In this document: one piece after another, positions 31,591-60,915 of the stretch
Layout: every line of letters starts with the position of its first letter
How positions within the stretch are numbered: position 1 is the stretch's first letter
Assembly: GCA_014896375.1 (NCBI GenBank)
Contig: JADBKN010000001.1
Location: 274 to 64,273, forward strand
Direction: 5' to 3'
DNA length: 64,000 nucleotides
DNA from: Bacillota bacterium
Lineage (GTDB): Bacteria > Bacillota > Sulfobacillia > RBS10-35 > Bu92
Program-made: the position numbers and the translations under genes
The notes under the pieces: model-generated
The model's database searches: none
What the model saw: only the letters and a program-made list of their open reading frames with translations
Told to the model about the DNA's origin: nothing

Positions 31591-32715
31591 TTGACACCGA
31601 TCGAACCGACCGTTGTGATGCAGCGTCTCCAGGCGCTGGCGGGGCGCGACCTGTACGTGCACCTGGAGACGACGACCGGCGCCTACACGAAGGGTGCCTT
31701 CGGGGCGTTTCTGCGCAATGGGCGCATCCGCTTTCTGGACGGGCGCGTTACGGGGCGCGGCCCGTTCCGCGTGGGGCTGCGCCTCGCGGACGGCTGGCTC
31801 TACGCCGAGGGCTTGACGCATTGGGACGTCGACGAGGACGGGCGGCTGCTGCTCGCGGGCCACGATGACGAGGGCCGGCTCACGGTGGCGCTGGAGCTCA
31901 GCCCGGAGCCCTTCCCCGCGGCGTGGGGCGCGGGGCCGGCGCTGGGCGTGGGGGCGGCGCAGGGCGCGAGGGCGTTGGAGCCCGGCGCACACGGCGCTGG
32001 CGGCGCGGAGGCGTTGGAGCGGCGCGTGCCCGGCGCTGGCGGCGCGGAGGCGGCGCTTGTCCGCGGCCCCCTCGTCGTCGTCCTCGCCCACCCGGACGAT
32101 GAGTCCTTCGCGTGCGGCGGCGTCATGGCGCTGCACGCGGCGGCGGGCGCGCCGGTGACCTACGTCTGCGCCACGCGCGGCGAGATGGGCCGCAACATGG
32201 GCCGGCCTCCCCTCGCCACGCGGGAGACGCTGGCATCCCTTCGGGAGCGCGAGCTCGTCGCCGCCTGCGCGGCGCTGGGCGTGCACGACGTGCGCTTTTT
32301 GGGGCTCTGGGACAAGACTGTGGAGTTCGTCGACCGCGAGGCGTTGGTGGAGGCCGTGCGCGCAATCCTGCTGGAGATGGAGCCGGTGCGTCTCATCACG
32401 TTCCATCCCCGCTTCGGCGGGCACCCGGATCACGAGGCGGTGGGGGCGGCAGCTCTTGAGGCCGTGCGCCGGCTGCCGGCAGAGCGGCGGCCGGTGGTCT
32501 GGTGCCCCATCGTGCCGGCGGCCGAGGGCGATGCCGGCCTGCCGGTGGAGACGGTGGACATCCGTGCCGTCGGTGAGCGGAAGATGGCGGCGCTCCGGGC
32601 GCACCGCTCCCAGACGGCGAACTGGGAGGCGCGCGCCGAGGCGGACCCGGAACTGCGCGCGCGTATGGAGAGGATGCGTTCGGAAGAGCGGTTCTGGGTG
32701 TATGCGGTGGAGTGA
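31591..32715 (+). CDS. Fusion protein: YojF-like (DUF1806) N-terminal domain plus PIG-L / LmbE-family N-acetylglucosaminyl deacetylase (BshB2-like)
   Basis: The N-terminal ~110 aa (LYVHLETTTGAYTKGAFGAFLRNGRIRFLDGRVTGRGPFRVGL) matches YojF as recalled. The C-terminal domain has the AHPDDE / PIG-L motif. The two are linked by a duplicated Gly/Ala segment (GAHGAGGAEALERR / VPGAGGAEAALVRG). In Bacillus yojF and bshB2 are adjacent but separate genes. Confidence 0.65.
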   Translation: MTPIEPTVVMQRLQALAGRDLYVHLETTTGAYTKGAFGAFLRNGRIRFLDGRVTGRGPFRVGLRLADGWLYAEGLTHWDVDEDGRLLLAGHDDEGRLTVALELSPEPFPAAWGAGPALGVGAAQGARALEPGAHGAGGAEALERRVPGAGGAEAALVRGPLVVVLAHPDDESFACGGVMALHAAAGAPVTYVCATRGEMGRNMGRPPLATRETLASLRERELVAACAALGVHDVRFLGLWDKTVEFVDREALVEAVRAILLEMEPVRLITFHPRFGGHPDHEAVGAAALEAVRRLPAERRPVVWCPIVPAAEGDAGLPVETVDIRAVGERKMAALRAHRSQTANWEARAEADPELRARMERMRSEERFWVYAVE

Positions 32716-32878
32716 GCGGCGAGGGAGGGGCGGCGCGGCGCCGGGCGGTGGTGTGGCGGCAACACCTGCCGCTCGGGGGGCGCGCCATGCGGTGCCGGCC
32801 GCCGGCAGGCGGGCGTGGGGCGCGGGGTACGCGGTGCGGGGGCTGCCGTGGCTTGGCGGGTGTGAGGCGTGGAGTGCA

Positions 32879-32948
32879 CCTTATCGGTTGACATAACGCC
32901 AAATGGTGGGGTCGTAAGGTCGATGGGACGCCTTATGGGTTGACATAA
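32879..32948. repeat. Two tandem copies of the TATCGGTTGACATAACGCC-like motif (the second is an inverted repeat CCTTATG-n6-CATAAGG), 48 bp apart
   Basis: Direct read of the 32716-33300 intergenic region; see the feature at 23137. Confidence 0.45.
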
Positions 32949-33119
32949 GGCCGGCGACCCGGGGGTGACGCCCAAGTGAAGGCGCGACTTGCGCCTTACC
33001 CTCTGCGGAAACGCCGTTGAGCCGACGGTGGAGGCGCAAAGAGTGCCTAATTCCTCGCAGTGGTGGGTGCGGTAGAGGTGCCGGGTACGTCCAGGGTATC
33101 GCGCCGTAGAGAGACGCGG

Positions 33120-33148
33120 GCCGTGACCGCGCCTCTTTTTTCCTTTGC
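33120..33148 (+). terminator. Hairpin plus T6 tract (possible terminator of an unannotated short transcript)
   Basis: GCGGG-ccgtgac-CGCGCC followed by TCTTTTTTCC, about 430 nt downstream of the nearest upstream gene. Confidence 0.3.
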
Positions 33149-33240
33149 TTGCTCGCTTTCCCGCTCGGTTTCCCTCGCTGAGTGAGACCTCTCTTGGAAG
33201 CGGATCCGCCACCCGCGGTGCTCTCCGATGCGTGGCGGCA

Positions 33241-33296
33241 TTGACCTCACCCGAACATGTGTTCTATACTGCAATCGAACACACGTTCGACGGAGG
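33241..33296 (+). promoter_or_regulatory. SOS promoter: TTGACC-N18-TATACT with two Gram-positive-type LexA (Cheo/DinR) boxes
   Basis: Box 1 CGAACATGTGTTCT at 33253-33266 overlaps the spacer. Box 2 CGAACACACGTTCG at 33283-33296 lies just downstream of the -10. Both fit GAAC-N4-GTTC. Confidence 0.65.
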
Positions 33297-33303
33297 TTGC
33301 CCC

Positions 33304-34641
33304 ATGGGACAGGCGGAACAGGCGCCCAAGGAGCGGGTCGGGTACTTCGCGCTCGCCGGCTTTTTCGCGCAGGTGGAGCGGGTCGAACGCGGCGGAGAGG
33401 CGCCGGTGGTCGTCATCCGGGACGGCCGCGTCCTCGATCGCGACGCTGCCGCGAAGGAGGCCGGCGTGCGCTTGGGGCAGGCGGAAGTCGAGGCCCGCCA
33501 AGCCTGTCCCCGTGCCCGGTTCATTCCTTATGTGGCCGCTCGCTACCGCGCCGCGGCCGATCAGGTCATGGCGGCGGCGTACGCCCTTTCGCCCGTGCTG
33601 GAACCGGATGGCGAGGCGGCGGGTTGGTTCGAGCTCGGCCGCAATCAGAGCCCGGAAGAAGTCGTGGAGAGCCTGTCCGCCGCTCTGATCCCACGGTGGG
33701 GAATCCGCCTGCTGACCGGTTTCGGCCCCAACCCGTGGACGGCGCAGTTGGCCGCGCTCCGCTTGGCTTCGCCGGCCAACCCCTTTCCGGTGGTGGCGGC
33801 CGCCTCGGCCGCAGACGCCCTGGCGCCGCTGCCTGTGGCCGTACTGGATCGCGTCCTGCCAGGCATCTCACCGCGGTTGCAAGCACTGGGACTCCACACC
33901 CTGGGGCAGGTGGCGGCCGTGCCGCCTCCGGAACTGCGGCGTGCCTTGGGGGAGCCGGCGCTGGCCGCTCAAGGCTACAGCCGCGGCGAGGACGGCCGCC
34001 GCGTGCGGCCGCTCTGGCCGCGCGCGGCCGTCGTAGAGGCGGTGGACTTCTCAAGCCCCCTCTCCAACCTGGAAACCGTCTCCCACACGCTGGACCGCCT
34101 GGCCGCCGCGCTCGCCCGCAGGCTGAGGGACAAGGGCCAGGCCGGGCGTCAGGTGGCGCTGGAGGTTCTCACGGAGGACGGGCGGGCGCGCCGCGCGGAG
34201 CGCCGCTTCACCCGGCCGCGGGCAGATGCGGCCGTGGCCCAGGTCCTTCACTTTCTCTGGGCGGGAGAGCTGTGGCCGGAACTGGCGCGCGGCTCGCGGG
34301 GGGCGCTGCGGATCGTCCGGCTGGCGGCGTCTGTCTCGGACCTCTGCGAGCGACCGTGGGCCCAGGTCGGGCTATGGCAGGAGCCCTCCGCGGCGGAACG
34401 CACCCTGAGTGCGGGAGGGAGAGTGGCGGCCGAGCGGGAGGCTGCGCGGCCGGAGGGACTGCCTTCGGTGGACCGGCGCAAGCTCCCCCAGGTGGTGCAG
34501 GAGCTCCGTGCGCGCTTCCCTTCCGCGCATGTGGGCTTCGGTGCCCCGGAGGCGGCCGACTGGCGCGAGGAGCGGCTGGCGTTCTGGGATCCCCTCCGCT
34601 GGACGACGCAGTCGCACGGTGCCGGCCGGTCCTCTCGATGA
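33304..34641 (+). CDS. imuB: ImuB-like catalytically inactive Y-family DNA polymerase
   Basis: Aligns with the DinB N-terminus, but the catalytic DMD and SLDE acidic residues are replaced (YFALAG; EPDGEAAGWFEL). ATG at 33304 after GGAGG. LexA boxes lie upstream, with dnaE2 downstream. Confidence 0.75.
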   Translation: MGQAEQAPKERVGYFALAGFFAQVERVERGGEAPVVVIRDGRVLDRDAAAKEAGVRLGQAEVEARQACPRARFIPYVAARYRAAADQVMAAAYALSPVLEPDGEAAGWFELGRNQSPEEVVESLSAALIPRWGIRLLTGFGPNPWTAQLAALRLASPANPFPVVAAASAADALAPLPVAVLDRVLPGISPRLQALGLHTLGQVAAVPPPELRRALGEPALAAQGYSRGEDGRRVRPLWPRAAVVEAVDFSSPLSNLETVSHTLDRLAAALARRLRDKGQAGRQVALEVLTEDGRARRAERRFTRPRADAAVAQVLHFLWAGELWPELARGSRGALRIVRLAASVSDLCERPWAQVGLWQEPSAAERTLSAGGRVAAEREAARPEGLPSVDRRKLPQVVQELRARFPSAHVGFGAPEAADWREERLAFWDPLRWTTQSHGAGRSSR

Positions 34642-34699
34642 CGCCGCCCGCTCCCCCCGCTGCGCATGAAAGCGCCGCGGAGGGGAGGGTGCGCCGGCG

Positions 34700-34990
34700 A
34701 TGAAACGCGTCCGCCGGGAGGTCGAGGTGCGTCTCTCGCCTGAGGGCGTTCCGGTCGCGTACCGGGACCGCGGCCGCTGGCGGGAGATCGAAGCCGTCGT
34801 CGACTGCTGGTTCGAAGTCCTCCCCTGGTGGCCGGGGCGGGAGGCGGAGATGGCGGGAGGGCGGTTCGCCGAGGCGCTGGAAGTGGCGATGTACCGCGTC
34901 CTCTTGGAGGGCGGCGGCCTGGTGGAGCTGGAACGCTGTCCCGCGCGGGGCGGGGAGGCCCGCTGGCGCCTCTATCGGGTGTACGACTGA
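34700..34990 (+). CDS. Hypothetical protein (96 aa) in the imuB-dnaE2 cassette
   Basis: ATG after GGGGAGGG. Codon bias consistent with coding. No recognisable domain. Confidence 0.5.
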   Translation: MKRVRREVEVRLSPEGVPVAYRDRGRWREIEAVVDCWFEVLPWWPGREAEMAGGRFAEALEVAMYRVLLEGGGLVELERCPARGGEARWRLYRVYD

Positions 34991-35104
34991 CCCGCATTCA
35001 CGCGCTGACCGGCCTCTTCGCGCCCGTTTCCGACCTTTTCGCACGCTTCCCGACCTTCGTGGGCGGGGAACACTAGGCGAAACCCCGTTCGCAGGAGGAG
35101 GCGT

Positions 35105-35548
35105 GTGATGATGTGGTCTCGACGCTCACGGCCGGACGCGGCCCAGCGCAATCGCGCGGGCCTGGACTTCATGCAGGCGGACGCCGACCGCCGGACGCCG
35201 GTTCCGCCCGGCGAGGCGGATTTCGTCAACGTGGAGAACATGCGCCGCGAGCTGTTCCCGCAGGAGTTTCCGGAGGGGCCCTACGGAGCGCCGCCGGACG
35301 CCGTTGAGGCCGGTGGTTCGCCGGAGCTGGCCGCGCTCGACGGCGTCTTCGCTGGCGCCCTGGAAAGCGGGAGAGCCGGCGGCGGTTCATTCCCTGGGAT
35401 GGAGGTGGGGGGCGGCACGGCGCCAGCGGAGGACAGCGGGGGAGGCGAAGATGGTGGGGATGGAGATGAGGGCGGCGACGAGGACGCCGTCGACGATGAC
35501 GATCCGTTCGATCCCCGCATGATCTTCTTCTTCGACGGCGCCGGATGA
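35105..35548 (+). CDS. Hypothetical highly acidic, largely disordered protein (147 aa) ending in DPFDPRMIFFFDGAG, immediately upstream of dnaE2
   Basis: Strong SD GGAGGAGG 7-8 nt before ATGATG. Stop 3 nt before the dnaE2 ATG. Asp/Glu/Gly-rich. Confidence 0.5.
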   Translation: MMMWSRRSRPDAAQRNRAGLDFMQADADRRTPVPPGEADFVNVENMRRELFPQEFPEGPYGAPPDAVEAGGSPELAALDGVFAGALESGRAGGGSFPGMEVGGGTAPAEDSGGGEDGGDGDEGGDEDAVDDDDPFDPRMIFFFDGAG

Positions 35549-35551
35549 GCC

Positions 35552-38500
35552 ATGACCCACGGGAGCCCGTTCGTCCACCTGCACTGCCATTCTCCGTATT
35601 CCTTTCTGGACGGCGCCAGCCGCATCCGCACGCTGGTCCGTCGCGCGGCGGAACTGGGCCAGCCGGCCCTCGCGCTGACGGATCGCGACAACCTCTGCGG
35701 CGCCGTGGAGTTCGTGGAGGAGGCGGAGCGCGCCGGCATCCGCCCCATTCTGGGTGCGGAGGTCACGCTGGAGCCGCTGGCGGATGCAGGGGGAGGGGCG
35801 GGGGCGAAGGCAGGGGCGAGGGAAGGGGCGGGGGTGAAGGCACGGGCGAGGACAGGGGCGAGGACAGAGGCGAAGGCAGCGGCGGATCCCGGCTATCCCC
35901 TCGTGCTGTTGGCGGCGGGGCCGCACGGTTACCGGCAGCTGAGCCGGCTCATCACGCGCGCGCACCTTGAGAGGCCGCGGGGGCGGCCGCGCGCGAGCCT
36001 CACCGCCCTGGAGGAGGCGGCGGGCGCCAGCCGCGGCGAGCTCCTCGCGCTCACCGGCGGCCGCGCGTCGGAGATCCCCGCCCGGCTCCTGGCGGGGGAC
36101 CTCGACGGCGCCCGGGCGGCGCTGGAGCGGCTCGTCGGCATCCTGGGCCGGCCGCAGGTGGCGGTGGAGCTCGTCAACCCGTTCTTTCCAGGCGGGCGCC
36201 GGCTGTTGCGCCTCCTCGCGGAGCTGGCGGAGCGGGCGGGCGTGGCGCTGGTGGCGGCCAACGATGTGCGCTACGCGGACCGTTCGGCCTACATGGTCCA
36301 CGACCTCCTCTGCTGCGTGCGCGCGGGGGTGGACGTGTCCACGCCGCACCCTTGGCGGCCGCTGAACGCCGAGCAGGATCTGAAGAGCGCGGAGGCGATG
36401 GCGGCCGCGTTCGCGCCGTACGTGGAGGCCGTGGCGGAGGCCGGGCGCTGGGCGGAGCGCTGCGGCCCGGCCCTGGAGTTGGGCGTGGACCGCCACCCGG
36501 AGTTTCCCCTGCCGGAGGGCGTCGACGCCAACGAATACCTGCGGCGGCTCGTGTACGAGGGTGCGCGGCGGCGCTACGGCCGCGTGGGCCCGGCAGAGCG
36601 GGAGCGTCTGGAGCATGAGTTGGACATCATCGCCCGGCTCGGCTTCGCCGGCTACTTCCTCCTCGTCTGGGACGTGGCGCAGTTCGCCGCGCGGCGCGGC
36701 ATCCGCTTCGCGGGGCGCGGCTCCGCCGCCGATTCGGCCGTCGCCTACTGCCTCGGTATCACGAACGTGGACGCCATCCGGCGCGGGCTGCTCTTTGAAC
36801 GCTTCCTCAGCGTCGAGCGCGCGGAGAAGCCCGACATCGACATCGACTTCGACGCGCGGCGGCGCGACGAAGTCACGGCGTACGTCTACGAGCGCTACGG
36901 CCGCCGGCACGTGGCGAACGTGGCCGCCTTCCAGACGTTCCGCGGCCGCTCGGCGCTGCGCGACCTCGGCAAGGCGCTGCGCTTGCCGGCGGAGGAGATC
37001 GACCGCTTCGCCAAGCGCGTGCCCTACTTCGTGGCGGCCGACAACCTCGCCGAGGCCTTCGACAAGGTCCCGGAGCTGCGGGAGAGCGGCCTGGACCAGC
37101 GGAAGTTCGGCCTGCTCTTGCAGGCGGCGGCCGCCGTGGCCGGGTTTCCGCGCCACCTGAGCACGCACGTCGGCGGGGTGGTGATCACAAGGGAGCCGGT
37201 GGAGGAGATCCTCCCCGTGCAGATGGCCGCGAAGGGTGTGCCGATCCTGCAGGCGGACCGCGACGGCGTGGAGGCGCTGGGGCTGGTCAAGCTGGACCTG
37301 CTCTCCCTGCGCACCTTCTCCGCCGTGGAGCAGGCTGTGCGCGCCATCGTGGAGGAGGACGAGGACTTCGACTACGACCGCATTCCGCAGGGGGACCGCG
37401 CCACGTTCGAGATGCTCAACGAGGGCCGCACGATCGGCGTCTTCCAGCTGGAGAGCCCGGCGCAGCGGGCGCTGCAGGCACGCCTGGGGGCGGAGCGGTT
37501 CGAGGACATCGTCGCGAGTGTGGCCATCATCCGGCCGGGGCCCATCAAGGGCAACATGGTGGAGCCGTACATCCGCCGGCGCCGCGGGGAGGAGCCGGTC
37601 CGCTACCTGCACCCCGCGCTGGAGCCCATCCTCCGCAAGACGTACGGCGTCGTGCTCTTCCAGGAGCAGGTGATCGACATCGCGCACGCGGTGGCGGGAT
37701 TCACGCCGGGAGAGGCGGACCGTCTCCGCCGCACGATGAGCCACGCCCGCTCCCAGGAGGAGATGGCGGAGATCGGGCGCCTCTTTGTGCGCAAGGCGGC
37801 GGCGCGCGGCGTGCCGGAGGAGACGGCGGCGGCCATCTTCCAGTGCCTGGCGGGCTACGCCAGCTACGGCTTCAACGAGGCCCACGCGGCGGCGTTCGCG
37901 GACACGGCGTACCGAACGGCGTACCTTGTGCGGCACCATCCCGCGGCCTTCTTCGCCGGGATCCTCTCCAGCCAGCCGATGGGCTACTACCCCCTGCATA
38001 CGGTGGTGGCCGACGCGCGCGCGCGCGGCGTGGAGGTGCGGCCTCCGGATGTGCGCTCAAGTCTCCCGGAGTGCACCGTGGAGGACGGCGGAACCGCTAT
38101 CCGGCTGGGGCTGGCGCTGTTGGCGGGGCTTTCGCGGCGCACCCAGGAGCGGATCGCGATGGCGCGCGCGGAGCGCCCGTACGCGGGCGTGCTGGATTTT
38201 CTCGCGCGGGCGGCGCCGTCGCGGGACGAGGCCGAGGCGCTCGCGCTCTCGGGGGCGCTCGACGGCCTCGTGCAGGGGCGGCGGCGGGCGCTGCTCTGGG
38301 CGCTGCCGGAGGCATACCGGCGGCTGGAGGCGAGGGCGGCGTTGCCCATCGAGGAGGCGGCGCGCGCGGCGGGGGCTGCGGCCGCCGGTACGGCGGGGAA
38401 CGCGGCCGCCGGTACGGCGGTAGCGGCTGCGGCCGAGGTGGGCGACCCGCCGGACCTTCTTCCGGCCCTGCCGGAATTCACCCCCGAGGAGCGCGTCGTC

Positions 38501-38932
38501 CACGAGTGGCGATGTCTCGGCTTCGCGCTGACCGCGCACCCCATGGCCTTCTGGCGCGAGCGCCTCCGCCGGCGCGGTTTCCTCACCAGCCGCGAGGCGG
38601 CGCAGGCGGCGGCGGGGTCGCGCGTGAGGGTGGCCGGCCTGCCCGTGCGGCCCCATCGCCCTCCCACGCGAAGCGGGCGCATCGTCGTCTACGTTTCGCT
38701 GGAGGACGAGTTCGGCCTCACCGATGTCGTCATCCTCGAAGAGTTGTACCAGCGGGAGGGCGGCGTGCTGTTCGGCGAGCGCCTGCCGCCTGTGGCGGTG
38801 GAGGGCGTCGTGGAGCGCCGCGGTCGCGGCGTTCAGGTGCGCGCGGAGCGCGTGGCGCCGCTCGGCCGCACGCGGGGTGCGGGAGCGGCGGGGCGGGTGC
38901 CGGCGCGCCCCGCGCCCGGGCGGCGCCGGTAG
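35552..38932 (+). CDS. dnaE2: Error-prone DNA polymerase III alpha-like subunit DnaE2 (ImuC)
   Basis: N-terminal PHP domain (HLHCHSPYSFLDGAS), pol III alpha core (GRGSAADSAVAYCLGIT, FERFLSVERAEKPDIDIDF). 1126 aa. Low-complexity insertion in the PHP domain (GGGAGAKAGAREGAGVKARARTGARTEAKA). Confidence 0.9.
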   Translation: MTHGSPFVHLHCHSPYSFLDGASRIRTLVRRAAELGQPALALTDRDNLCGAVEFVEEAERAGIRPILGAEVTLEPLADAGGGAGAKAGAREGAGVKARARTGARTEAKAAADPGYPLVLLAAGPHGYRQLSRLITRAHLERPRGRPRASLTALEEAAGASRGELLALTGGRASEIPARLLAGDLDGARAALERLVGILGRPQVAVELVNPFFPGGRRLLRLLAELAERAGVALVAANDVRYADRSAYMVHDLLCCVRAGVDVSTPHPWRPLNAEQDLKSAEAMAAAFAPYVEAVAEAGRWAERCGPALELGVDRHPEFPLPEGVDANEYLRRLVYEGARRRYGRVGPAERERLEHELDIIARLGFAGYFLLVWDVAQFAARRGIRFAGRGSAADSAVAYCLGITNVDAIRRGLLFERFLSVERAEKPDIDIDFDARRRDEVTAYVYERYGRRHVANVAAFQTFRGRSALRDLGKALRLPAEEIDRFAKRVPYFVAADNLAEAFDKVPELRESGLDQRKFGLLLQAAAAVAGFPRHLSTHVGGVVITREPVEEILPVQMAAKGVPILQADRDGVEALGLVKLDLLSLRTFSAVEQAVRAIVEEDEDFDYDRIPQGDRATFEMLNEGRTIGVFQLESPAQRALQARLGAERFEDIVASVAIIRPGPIKGNMVEPYIRRRRGEEPVRYLHPALEPILRKTYGVVLFQEQVIDIAHAVAGFTPGEADRLRRTMSHARSQEEMAEIGRLFVRKAAARGVPEETAAAIFQCLAGYASYGFNEAHAAAFADTAYRTAYLVRHHPAAFFAGILSSQPMGYYPLHTVVADARARGVEVRPPDVRSSLPECTVEDGGTAIRLGLALLAGLSRRTQERIAMARAERPYAGVLDFLARAAPSRDEAEALALSGALDGLVQGRRRALLWALPEAYRRLEARAALPIEEAARAAGAAAAGTAGNAAAGTAVAAAAEVGDPPDLLPALPEFTPEERVVHEWRCLGFALTAHPMAFWRERLRRRGFLTSREAAQAAAGSRVRVAGLPVRPHRPPTRSGRIVVYVSLEDEFGLTDVVILEELYQREGGVLFGERLPPVAVEGVVERRGRGVQVRAERVAPLGRTRGAGAAGRVPARPAPGRRR

Positions 38933-39016
38933 CGGCGGCGCGGACGGCGGCCGCCCGCCGCCCTGGACGCGGGCCGCCTCCGGCCGCATAGTTCTTTCCA
39001 GAGAGGAGCGGTACCC

Positions 39017-40588
39017 ATGGCGTCGGTGCCCCGTCCCGGCCGCCCGCCGGACCCGGAGGAGTGGCGCGGGAGGAGGGTCGCCGTGGTCGGCCTCGGCATC
39101 AGCAACCTGGCGCTCGTCCGCTTCCTCCGGCGGCACGGCGCCGCCGTGGAGGTGCGCGACCAGCAATCGCCGGAGGCCCTGGGCGGGCGTCTGCGGGAAG
39201 CGATGGAGTGGGGCGCGGCGGCGCGCGTGGGCGAGGGCTACCTTGAGGGGCTCGACGCCTTCGACGCGGTCTTTCTCACGCCCGGCATGCGCAAGGACTT
39301 GCCGGAGATCGCCGCCCTGCACGCCAAGGGCGTGCCCGTCTCCAGCGAGGTGGGGCTCTTCATGCGCTACTGCCGCGCGCCCATCGTGGGTGTGACGGGC
39401 AGCGCCGGCAAAACGACGACGACGACGCTCACCGGCCGCCTCTTCGCCGCCGCTCATCCGCGGACGTACGTGGGGGGGAACATCGGCCGGCCGCTCGTGG
39501 AGCTGGTCGAGGACATCCCACCGGACGCCTGGGTGGTACTGGAGCTCTCCAGTTTCCAGCTGGAGCTCGTCGAGTCGAGCCCCAACCTCGCCGCCGTGCT
39601 GAACCTGCGCCCGAACCACCTCGACGTCCACCCCTCGATGGACGCGTACCGCGCCGCCAAGCAGCGCATCTACCGCTTCCAGGGTCCGGGGGACTGGTGC
39701 GTCTTCAACGCGGACGACGACGCCACCTGGCCCTGGCACGCCGAGGCCCCGGGCCGTGTGGCGGCCTTCTCGACGGCGCAGCCGGTGGAATGCGGCACCT
39801 GGCTCGCAGGCCCGCGGGCGGAGGCCGTGGTGCTCACGAACCTCTTGCCCGTGCGGGCGGCCGCGGAGGGCGCGCCTCTGCCGGGCGGCACGCGGGAGCT
39901 CCTGCGCGCGGCCGACATCCGCCTCCCCGGCGCGCACAACCGCGCGAACGTGCTGGCCGCCGTCTCCCTGGCCGTGCTCGGCGGCGTGCCGGACGCGGCC
40001 GTCGCGCCCGTGGTGCGGGAGTTCCACGGCGTGCCGCACCGCCTGGAGACGGTGGCGGAAGTCGGCGGCGTGCTCTTCGTGAACGACTCCATCGCCACCT
40101 CGCCGGACCGCAGCATCGCCGCGCTGGAGACGTTCGAGCGGCCGGTCGTGCTGATCGCCGGCGGGTATGACAAGGGCCTCGACTTTCGTGAATGGGCGGA
40201 GGTGGTGCGGCGGCGCGCGCGCGCCGTGGTGCTGGTGGGGAAGGCGGCCGGGAAGCTCGCGGAGGCGCTGGAGGCGGCCGCGGGGCGCGCGGCCGGCGGC
40301 ACCGCGGTCGGCGGCGCCGCGGCGGCCGGCGAAGGCGCGGGCGCGGCCCAAGCCGCAAGCGGCGGCGCCGGTGGCGGACCCTTCGTGGAGCGCGCGGCCA
40401 CGTTTGAGGAGGCCGTCTGGCGCGCCGCCGCCGCAGCGAGGCCGGGTGACATCGTCCTGCTCTCCCCGGCCTGCGCGAGCTACGACATGTTCCGCAACTT
40501 CGAGGAGCGCGGCGCGGCCTTCCGGGAAATCGTGCGCCGGTGGGCGGCGCGCGCGGCCGGCGCGGCCGATGCGACCGGCCGCGCGTGA
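39017..40588 (+). CDS. murD: UDP-N-acetylmuramoyl-L-alanine--D-glutamate ligase
   Basis: VAVVGLGISNLALVRFL Rossmann N-domain, GVTGSAGKTTTT, ELSSFQLE. C-terminal domain with a Gly/Ala-rich insert and a ~40 aa extension. Confidence 0.85.
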   Translation: MASVPRPGRPPDPEEWRGRRVAVVGLGISNLALVRFLRRHGAAVEVRDQQSPEALGGRLREAMEWGAAARVGEGYLEGLDAFDAVFLTPGMRKDLPEIAALHAKGVPVSSEVGLFMRYCRAPIVGVTGSAGKTTTTTLTGRLFAAAHPRTYVGGNIGRPLVELVEDIPPDAWVVLELSSFQLELVESSPNLAAVLNLRPNHLDVHPSMDAYRAAKQRIYRFQGPGDWCVFNADDDATWPWHAEAPGRVAAFSTAQPVECGTWLAGPRAEAVVLTNLLPVRAAAEGAPLPGGTRELLRAADIRLPGAHNRANVLAAVSLAVLGGVPDAAVAPVVREFHGVPHRLETVAEVGGVLFVNDSIATSPDRSIAALETFERPVVLIAGGYDKGLDFREWAEVVRRRARAVVLVGKAAGKLAEALEAAAGRAAGGTAVGGAAAAGEGAGAAQAASGGAGGGPFVERAATFEEAVWRAAAAARPGDIVLLSPACASYDMFRNFEERGAAFREIVRRWAARAAGAADATGRA

Positions 40589-60654: not shown

Positions 60655-60915
60655 CGTACAATGGAGCAAGATAGAGCGCGCCCCCCCGGAGCGCACCCTG
60701 CTGTGTGCGTGACGGAGCCGATGTTTGTTTTGAACCAACACCAAAACAAAGGGAGCCTGGACTCCGCCCGGAGCGGGCAGGCCGCGGAGCACGGCGGAAG
60801 CCTTCAACCGGCGGGAGGGCACCCACCTGCCAGGGGCAGGTTTGAAACCATCGGCGCACGGCACGGTGGGGTTGGATTCACGCGAACGCGCCCGCGAGGG
60901 CGCGTTTCGTGCTAC
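60655..60915 (+). ncRNA. Candidate 6S RNA (ssrS / bsrA-like) or other structured sRNA downstream of aspS
   Basis: TACAAT -10 at about 60654. 5'/3' complementarity (5' CCGATG with 3' CATCGG; 5' GAGCGCGCCC with 3' GGGCGCG). AT-rich hairpin TTGTTTTG-n10-CAAAACAA. Terminal hairpin ACGCGCCC-gcga-GGGCGCGT plus TTTCGTG. In B. subtilis the 6S-1 RNA gene lies directly downstream of aspS. Confidence 0.35.

Follow-up and report, generated by a model that had tools for sequence, protein, structure and literature searches.

A probable LexA-repressed, ImuA-less mutagenesis operon of the split-ImuB type in a Bacillota bacterium carries a conserved small acidic gene in front of dnaE2

The locus described here occupies positions 33241-38932 of a 64-kb window (the whole stretch of Bacillota DNA that was analysed, 64,000 nucleotides with a base composition of 72% G+C) and comprises four consecutive plus-strand genes located behind one promoter. 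These are imuY (also named iPolY) for a Y-family polymerase homologue of 445 amino acids (33304..34641), orf96 for a protein of 96 amino acids (34700..34990), orf147 for an acidic protein of 147 amino acids (35105..35548) and dnaE2 for a C-family error-prone polymerase of 1126 amino acids (35552..38932). The intergenic gaps measure 58, 114 and 3 nucleotides in this order, terminator-like sites were not found in the gaps between the four genes, and the preceding transcription unit is closed by an upstream terminator at 33115-33131. The original prediction had described a LexA-controlled mutasome cassette with two tightly packed small genes, and its promoter, boxes and genes are all present; the tight packing holds for the 3 nucleotides between orf147 and dnaE2, but not for the two larger gaps. 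The same order of the four genes was found in three related loci (L002, L005 and L006), and a fourth one (L008) has it minus orf147. The cassette is a member of the known and partly validated ImuA-less imuY/iPolY–imuB-C–dnaE2 class and its architecture is not new; the only new feature is orf147, which is missing from the published descriptions of this type and is conserved in a few related bacteria.

Transcription of the cassette most likely starts from a sigma-70-type promoter (33241..33270, plus strand) with the -35 element TTGACC at 33241-33246, a spacer of 18 nucleotides and the -10 element TATACT at 33265-33270. This promoter agrees with the consensus at 10 of 12 positions and is the sole sigma-70-like site across 32700-39300, where 0.1 sites are expected in shuffled sequences. 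Both predicted LexA (SOS) boxes are present on the plus strand, but they do not bracket the promoter as had been proposed: box 1 (CGAACATGTGTTCT, 33252..33265), which has one mismatch to CGAACN4GTTCG, lies inside the spacer and touches the -10 element, and box 2 (CGAACACACGTTCG, 33276..33289), a perfect match to the consensus, is located immediately downstream of the -10 element. The arrangement of TTGACC and boxes can also be seen in L002, L005 and L006, with box 1 kept at the same place and a second box kept as well; L008 has a single box. As the number of SOS-box matches in the entire window is not above chance (4 found versus 2.8 expected), the frequency of the boxes is not an argument for SOS control, which becomes credible because three other lineages have kept the pair on the promoter. 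The promoter region thus points to LexA-type (SOS) control of the cassette, in line with the original prediction. The lexA gene itself is not part of the cassette, which contains only the LexA boxes. A third LexA-like box with one mismatch (CGAAACCCCGTTCG, 35078-35091), just upstream of the orf147 ribosome-binding site, was rejected as internal operator, because L002, L005 and L006 do not share it and its occurrence does not exceed chance.

The product of the first gene (plus strand) matches the Pfam models IMS and IMS_C. In an alignment to the Pol IV structure PDB 7yll all four catalytic carboxylates turned out to be lost, with DMD replaced by ALA and SIDE by GEAA, which argues for a catalytically dead scaffold and agrees with the inactive ImuB-type protein originally predicted. 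The gene is conserved, with a ratio of nonsynonymous to synonymous substitution rates (dN/dS) of 0.16 in comparison to L002 and with relatives in the same operon type at 80-38% identity. An alignment of five iPolY orthologues revealed a conserved Q(V/A)xLW motif, a …V..LR.RFP…VGF segment and an invariant DWRE.RL.FWDP.R tail. In the window the first of these reads QVGLW (amino acids 354-358, 34363..34377, plus strand), with Q354 and W358 invariant in the five sequences; by eye it resembles the QLxLF/W clamp motif, and we take it to be a candidate beta-clamp-binding motif. The other two elements form a motif like the N-terminus of RecA (…VVQELRARFPSAHVGFG) and the conserved tail DWREERLAFWDPLR, which together span amino acids ~392-432 (34477..34599, plus strand) and contain R392, V397, L401, R402, P406, G411, W420, R421, E422, R424, L425, W428, D429, P430 and R432 as invariant residues of the five proteins. 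Motif and tail can be aligned with the published strings of the iPolYs from Thermaerobacter, Kyrpidia and Syntrophothermus, and there is an alignment with ADHRPE..W of canonical ImuB1 as well. The scaffold retains the RecA-N-terminus-like motif. A scan of the genome contigs with the single iPolY revealed no relatives, and the same scan with the iPolY alignment recovered three loci, none of them informative: a duplicate of L006, the chimeric L016 and a locus with an active DinB-type gene (L017). In L016 (JAHHQG010000053.1, 5060-7300) the iPolY gene is present as an inverted duplication, in which the same 300 amino acids are found on both strands around ~6350, and this palindromic contig looks like an assembly chimera.

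Directly downstream of iPolY, in the window (plus strand) as well as in L002, L005, L006 and L008, a short gene encodes a protein that was identified by the Pfam family DUF6504 (26.4 bits for orf96 at a cutoff of 24.2; three of five scanned orthologues, from L006, L008 and P0006 of the L002 lineage, also pass the cutoff). The AlphaFold2 model of orf96 is all-beta with six strands and a mean predicted local distance difference test score (pLDDT) of 81.9. A Foldseek comparison of this model with the PDB revealed no fold match, in keeping with the literature, where ImuB-C is described as a beta-barrel with a novel fold (PMC12926913). W89 and R93 are invariant and fit the C-terminal tryptophan and basic residues of the ImuB-C superfamily (PMC3765255), and dN/dS of the gene versus L002 is 0.14. 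Using tblastn against 7.3 Gb of plasmid sequences, the sole match to orf96 was weak (E=0.6) and fell on a Deinococcus gene annotated by NCBI as DUF6504 family protein, in a locus with a gene for an S24-family (LexA-type) peptidase upstream, an adjoining Y-family polymerase gene and dnaE downstream. Most probably orf96 represents the ImuB C-terminal domain in detached form, the other half of a split ImuB (imuB-C). The earlier view of orf96 as a basic protein that might substitute for ImuA had to be given up in both respects: acidic and basic residues are balanced (17 of each, isoelectric point (pI) 6.4), and one half of ImuB is not an ImuA substitute.

The last gene of the cassette (plus strand) has the error-prone DNA polymerase model NF004225 as best NCBIfam match and contains the Pfam domains PHP, Pol3 alpha, finger and HHH. 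The palm motif PDIDIDF corresponds in the alignment to PDIDTDF of Taq Pol III alpha, so that the palm aspartates are kept, and the PHP motif HLHCHS is kept, too. These features indicate a DnaE2-type polymerase with PHP domain at the end of the cassette, as had been predicted. The PHP domain contains an extra low-complexity insert of ~25-30 amino acids (Ala/Gly/Lys/Arg; amino acids ~76-112, window ~35777-35890), which is encoded by purine-rich repetitive DNA and is missing in the orthologues of L002, L006, L008 and Deinococcus. The closest plasmid-borne DnaE2, with 38% identity, was found on the Thermomicrobium roseum megaplasmid (L020, 1712-7177), where a RecA-family gene (Pfam RecA, 357 amino acids) and a reduced Y-family gene precede dnaE2; the C-terminus of this Y-family protein resembles ImuB-C by eye.

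An imuA/ImuA' or RecA homologue was found neither in the operon nor in the 64-kb window; the original prediction had noted the lack of ImuA in the cassette. A tblastn search of the window with actinobacterial ImuA' yielded only matches with E>0.8, and a RecA-type Walker A motif was not found. Cassettes of this kind are known, and the claim of an unusual architecture is superseded by descriptions from 2013, 2019, 2021 and 2026. Aravind et al. (2013) named ImuB-C and reported that it also occurs on its own, in operons that encode DnaE2 together with an inactive DinB (PMC3765255). Table S4 of a survey from 2019 lists the order iPolY, ImuB-C and DnaE2 for Kyrpidia, Thermaerobacter, Syntrophothermus, Alicyclobacillus, two Deinococcus species, Dehalogenimonas and Conexibacter, and imuA was not found anywhere in the genomes with this operon (PMC6511836). 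It has been proposed that RecA replaces ImuA by binding to the retained RecA-N-terminus-like motif of iPolY (PMC6511836, PMC12926913). A review from 2021 named the arrangement imuY-imuB-C-dnaE2 and included genetic evidence: UV-induced mutagenesis of Deinococcus deserti and D. ficus depends on imuY and dnaE2, both of which are RecA/LexA-controlled (PMC8072749). Finally, a survey from 2026 termed the class DnaE2X module and interpreted iPolY and ImuB-C as a split ImuB (PMC12926913).

The third gene, orf147 (35105..35548, plus strand), is preceded by the strong ribosome-binding site AGGAGGAGG; the start annotated by NCBI is one codon later at the next ATG, which results in 146 amino acids. The in-frame G+C content is 0.80-0.88 at third and ~0.5 at second codon positions, and dN/dS in comparison to L002 is 0.36. 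According to these sequence data orf147 is a real gene under purifying selection; iPolY and orf96 are likewise under purifying selection and show the third-position G+C signature of coding sequence. The protein has a pI of 4.05, and its AlphaFold2 model (pLDDT 54.8, predicted template modelling score 0.13) predicts a disordered chain without folded domain, which corresponds well to the acidic, apparently disordered protein with a hydrophobic tail, ending 3 nucleotides before dnaE2, that had been described. For orf147 and its relatives there is no match in Pfam, NCBIfam, PHROGs, PADLOC or PDB sequences, and the profile and fold searches suggested for the small proteins assigned orf96 to DUF6504 but gave no library match for orf147 and no PDB fold for orf96.

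The distribution of orf147 is narrow. A word-indexed search of 5.8 billion proteins detected it only in the source metagenome-assembled genome (Firmicutes bacterium IMW98) and in three other clusters with 46-48% identity; when 1.84 billion representatives were searched in full with a profile, one further version of 83 amino acids was recovered. In all four loci read that have the gene (the window, L002, L005 and L006) it is located between imuB-C and dnaE2. A fifth homologue (P0004) and an ImuB-C homologue (P0007) each come from a single Logan contig of 1444 nucleotides, which is presumably one and the same contig. A tblastn search of orf147 against plasmids gave nothing, and a metagenome scan with the orf147 alignment revealed one tail-less homologue only, in an unrelated context. 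Conservation of the small genes in related loci, which the original prediction had made a point of, extends to L002, L005, L006 and L008 for orf96, and for orf147 it extends to L002, L005 and L006 but not to L008.

Conservation within orf147 is concentrated at the two ends, and the acidic linker between them varies from ~15 to 80 residues and is nearly gone in L006. The N-terminal module (35147..35290, plus strand) is invariant in the tail-bearing homologues and contains the string RNRAGLDF…DFVNVENMR.ELFPQEFPEGPYGAP. Its core, DFxNVEN…EFPEGPYGAP, is common to ~17 small (44-90 amino acids) hypothetical proteins of Bacillota, which were detected in the profile search of the 1.84 billion representatives and belong to a family without Pfam or NCBIfam model. 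One representative of this EFPEGPYGAP family is called as fusion to an N-terminal part of 300 amino acids that is BioD-like by eye. In three loci read (L012, L013 and L018) the tail-less gene is located immediately upstream of an M20 peptidase gene. The C-terminal tail PFDPRMIFFFDGA (35504..35542, plus strand) has the consensus (PFDPRM)[ILV]FFFDGA; all five cassette-linked homologues have FFFDG without change, and homologues in other contexts lack it. Since synonymous positions in the tail codons vary (GGC/GGG, GCC/GCG), selection acts on the peptide. By eye, RMIFF and PLFFF in the tail resemble a clamp peptide of the QLxLF type, and the tail might act as clamp-binding peptide of a non-canonical kind, as ligand of the PHP/ImuB-C interface or as degron. 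FFFDGA also resembles the PHP motif YSFLDGA of DnaE2, which is located 20 codons downstream. A YolD-like N-terminal arm (RNRAGLDF versus DRGxIKW) was considered and rejected, as this resemblance is by eye only and is not backed by a model match; YolD or UmuD (S24) models do not match orf147 in Pfam/NCBIfam at E<=1.

The spacer between the orf147 stop codon and the dnaE2 ATG is 3 nucleotides in the window and 3-6 nucleotides in all four loci, and because of this short distance we assume coupled translation of the two genes. In three of the four loci orf147 and dnaE2 are in the same frame, with the stop codon and one or two codons between them (window 35546-35554; L002 8376-8387; L005 2898-2906). 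Stop-codon readthrough leading to an orf147-DnaE2 fusion was rejected, as the genes are out of frame in L006, L005 uses TAA and a fused protein does not occur among the 1.84 billion representatives. Translational coupling is the more probable explanation of the junction.

Upstream of the SOS promoter a stretch of ~525 nucleotides (32716-33240) is free of genes, and the counterpart gap in L002 comprises only 114 nucleotides. The stretch contains two direct repeats of 22 nucleotides (CCTTATnGGTTGACATAAnGCC, 32879-32900 and 32931-32952), each of them an imperfect palindrome around TTGACA, followed by ~180 nucleotides with moderate folding (z = -2.3) that end with the intrinsic terminator at 33115-33131 and a T run. 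Rfam gave no match for this stretch, which might encode a small RNA or serve as a regulated leader. The preceding open reading frame of 374 amino acids (31591-32715, plus strand) combines a segment at the position of the DUF1806 gene of L002 with an Ala/Gly-rich linker and a PIG-L/deacetylase-like C-terminal part; its counterpart in L002 consists of two separate genes of 110 and 217 amino acids, and the open reading frame may be a gene fusion or a call extended upstream. Further downstream in the window the 6S RNA (SsrS) gene was identified at 60692-60876 on the plus strand (Rfam RF00013, 85 bits at a gathering score of 46).

Based on these results we consider it quite probable that the four genes form a mutagenesis operon of the split-ImuB type (imuY/iPolY–imuB-C–dnaE2, DnaE2X module) that is repressed by LexA. 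To judge from the promoter sequence, LexA would repress transcription via the two operators that overlap the single promoter, and after DNA damage a RecA filament would trigger self-cleavage of LexA, so that the operon is transcribed as one unit. The 445-amino-acid Y-family protein would serve as non-polymerising scaffold, which binds the clamp via QVGLW and RecA via the RecA-N-terminus-like motif, and by homology with the published systems RecA may stand in for the missing ImuA through this motif. The beta-barrel of the 96-amino-acid ImuB-C is expected from published models and genetics to bind DnaE2, which in turn, with its palm aspartates kept, would carry out error-prone synthesis across lesions. 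For orf147 we tentatively favour a lineage-specific subunit of accessory or regulatory function, composed of two short linear motifs. As the tail is found only in cassette-linked copies and the junction of 3-6 nucleotides to dnaE2 is preserved, it seems feasible that the C-terminal aromatic peptide ([ML]xFFFDGA) makes a mutasome-specific contact, either with a component of the mutasome or within the cleft of the beta-clamp, and that the protein is synthesized in a coupled manner with DnaE2. The EFPEGPYGAP module is shared with small proteins outside mutasome loci and might therefore bind a more general cellular partner. A more far-reaching version appears unlikely to us, in which orf147 would be a true fourth subunit of the ImuA-less mutasome and a disordered tether, with FFFDGA binding to the DnaE2 PHP/ImuB-C interface or the beta-clamp, partly replacing the extended ImuA loop of canonical complexes, and EFPEGPYGAP recruiting the general partner.

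Several observations weigh against this picture of the operon and of its fourth protein. The score of DnaE2 with NF004225 is 919 bits and thus just below the cutoff of 939. Comparisons of orf96 with the C-termini of three canonical or fused ImuBs using hhalign and hmmsearch were no better than those with shuffled sequences, and the three ImuBs themselves have no DUF6504 match. As these direct profile comparisons are not significant, the assignment of orf96 to ImuB-C is based on Pfam, on the shared context and on published iterative searches, which were also necessary in print to link solo ImuB-C to fused ImuB (PMC3765255). The absence of imuA refers to the operon and the 64 kb of the window. 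With regard to orf147, L008 does without the gene, its imuB-C stop codon overlapping the start of dnaE2; for the four Firmicutes the published table names no gene between ImuB-C and DnaE2 (PMC6511836); and the ~17 proteins of the EFPEGPYGAP family lack the tail and are encoded in unrelated gene surroundings, in several cases with an M20 peptidase gene downstream. Because of the related operons without it, orf147 cannot be essential for, or a core part of, this mutasome type.

The limited extent of the window, 64 kb of a genome, would also be compatible with the idea that a fused imuB was split artificially by an assembly error or a frameshift and that a normal imuA is located elsewhere, the more so as the open reading frames of iPolY (stop at 34641) and orf96 (start at 34700) are in different frames and 58 nucleotides apart. 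We regard this as very improbable and rejected a frameshift artefact, since the same split, with an own start codon and ribosome-binding site, recurs in separately assembled sequences from at least five lineages and in complete genomes from the literature, and imuA is missing from the surveyed genomes of this operon type (PMC6511836). More weight has to be given to the possibility that orf147 is a passenger, i.e. a widespread small Bacillota gene of the EFPEGPYGAP family that was inserted in one clade and is co-transcribed without any role in translesion synthesis. The location of this family mostly outside mutasome loci, often upstream of the M20 peptidase gene, the operons without an intervening gene and the dN/dS of orf147, which exceeds the 0.14-0.16 of its neighbours, are what one would expect of such a gene. 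We nevertheless consider it somewhat unlikely, because the position of orf147 is kept across lineages in which iPolY has diverged to 50% identity, the junction to dnaE2 is kept in four of four loci, and the new invariant C-terminal tail is restricted to cassette-linked copies.

It is also conceivable that orf147 acts as a negative regulator, either as an acidic DNA mimic or competitor that holds DnaE2 or the scaffold inactive, or as a short-lived protein whose tail is a Lon/Clp-type degron. SOS mutagenesis commonly has proteolytic control and small inhibitory subunits, and the strongly acidic and disordered nature of orf147, together with the aromatic, hydrophobic peptide at its C-terminus, would fit to such a function. 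However, similarity to a known DNA mimic or regulator was not detected in any of the libraries searched (Pfam, NCBIfam, PHROGs, PADLOC and PDB), and the variable length of the acidic linker, including its near loss in L006, argues against a defined DNA-mimic surface, so that this explanation seems quite unlikely to us and we retain the accessory or regulatory subunit as preferred reading of orf147.

Since DnaE2 systems are a driving force of damage-induced mutation and of evolving drug resistance, an ImuA-less, RecA-dependent mutasome class is of interest. The cassette adds one member to this published class, and the conserved disordered fourth protein is a useful new lead. If orf147 binds to the complex, split-ImuB mutasomes can gain extra linear-motif subunits, and a clue to the function of the EFPEGPYGAP small-protein family of Bacillota would be available for the first time; if it does not bind, the locus is an ordinary one.

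The known systems closest to the cassette include operons of other Firmicutes. Kyrpidia tusciae, Thermaerobacter marianensis, Syntrophothermus lipocalidus and Alicyclobacillus acidocaldarius share the gene order and the phylum with the window, the RecA-N-terminus-like motif and the …RE.RL.FWDP.R tail of the iPolYs of these operons align with the scaffold of the window, and lexA is not listed in any of the four operons, just as it is missing from the cassette. They differ in the region between ImuB-C and DnaE2, for which nothing is listed in the four genomes, whereas the acidic gene is inserted there in the window and in four related lineages. Elsewhere in the class the published tables skip one accession number in Conexibacter woesei and one locus tag in Deinococcus grandis, presumably ADB52663 and DEIGR_310078 (PMC6511836, PMC8072749), which would belong to intervening genes without a name. 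The Deinococcus cassette also combines an inactive Y-family scaffold, a standalone ImuB-C of ~80-96 amino acids and DnaE2 with SOS control and without imuA, and the ImuB-C of Deinococcus sp. KNUC1210 is named DUF6504 by NCBI, which is the Pfam family matched by orf96. In contrast to the cassette described here, with its LexA boxes only, lexA is part of the Deinococcus operon; furthermore, a homologue of orf147 is not present in the gap between imuB-C and dnaE2 of the Deinococcus locus, and the Deinococcus DnaE2 is without the PHP His motif, which the DnaE2 of the window keeps.

The canonical ImuA(ImuA')–ImuB–DnaE2 mutasome of Mycobacterium, Caulobacter and Pseudomonas (also represented by the loci L009 and L019) shares with the cassette a dead scaffold with clamp and RecA-N-terminus-like motifs, the ImuB-C module, DnaE2 as catalytic subunit and SOS control. 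Compared with it, the cassette lacks ImuA, ImuB is split over two genes, and the DnaE2 belongs to a divergent group and narrowly misses the NCBIfam error-prone cutoff. According to AlphaFold models in the literature, DnaE2 of the mycobacterial ImuA-ImuB-DnaE2 complex is contacted at its PHP domain mainly by ImuB-C. With UmuD', YqjX/YolD and YhjD orf147 has no detectable sequence relationship, and it is predicted to be without a folded domain, but these small accessory proteins, which touch the polymerase via disordered peptides (PMC12926913), provide a conceptual precedent for orf147.

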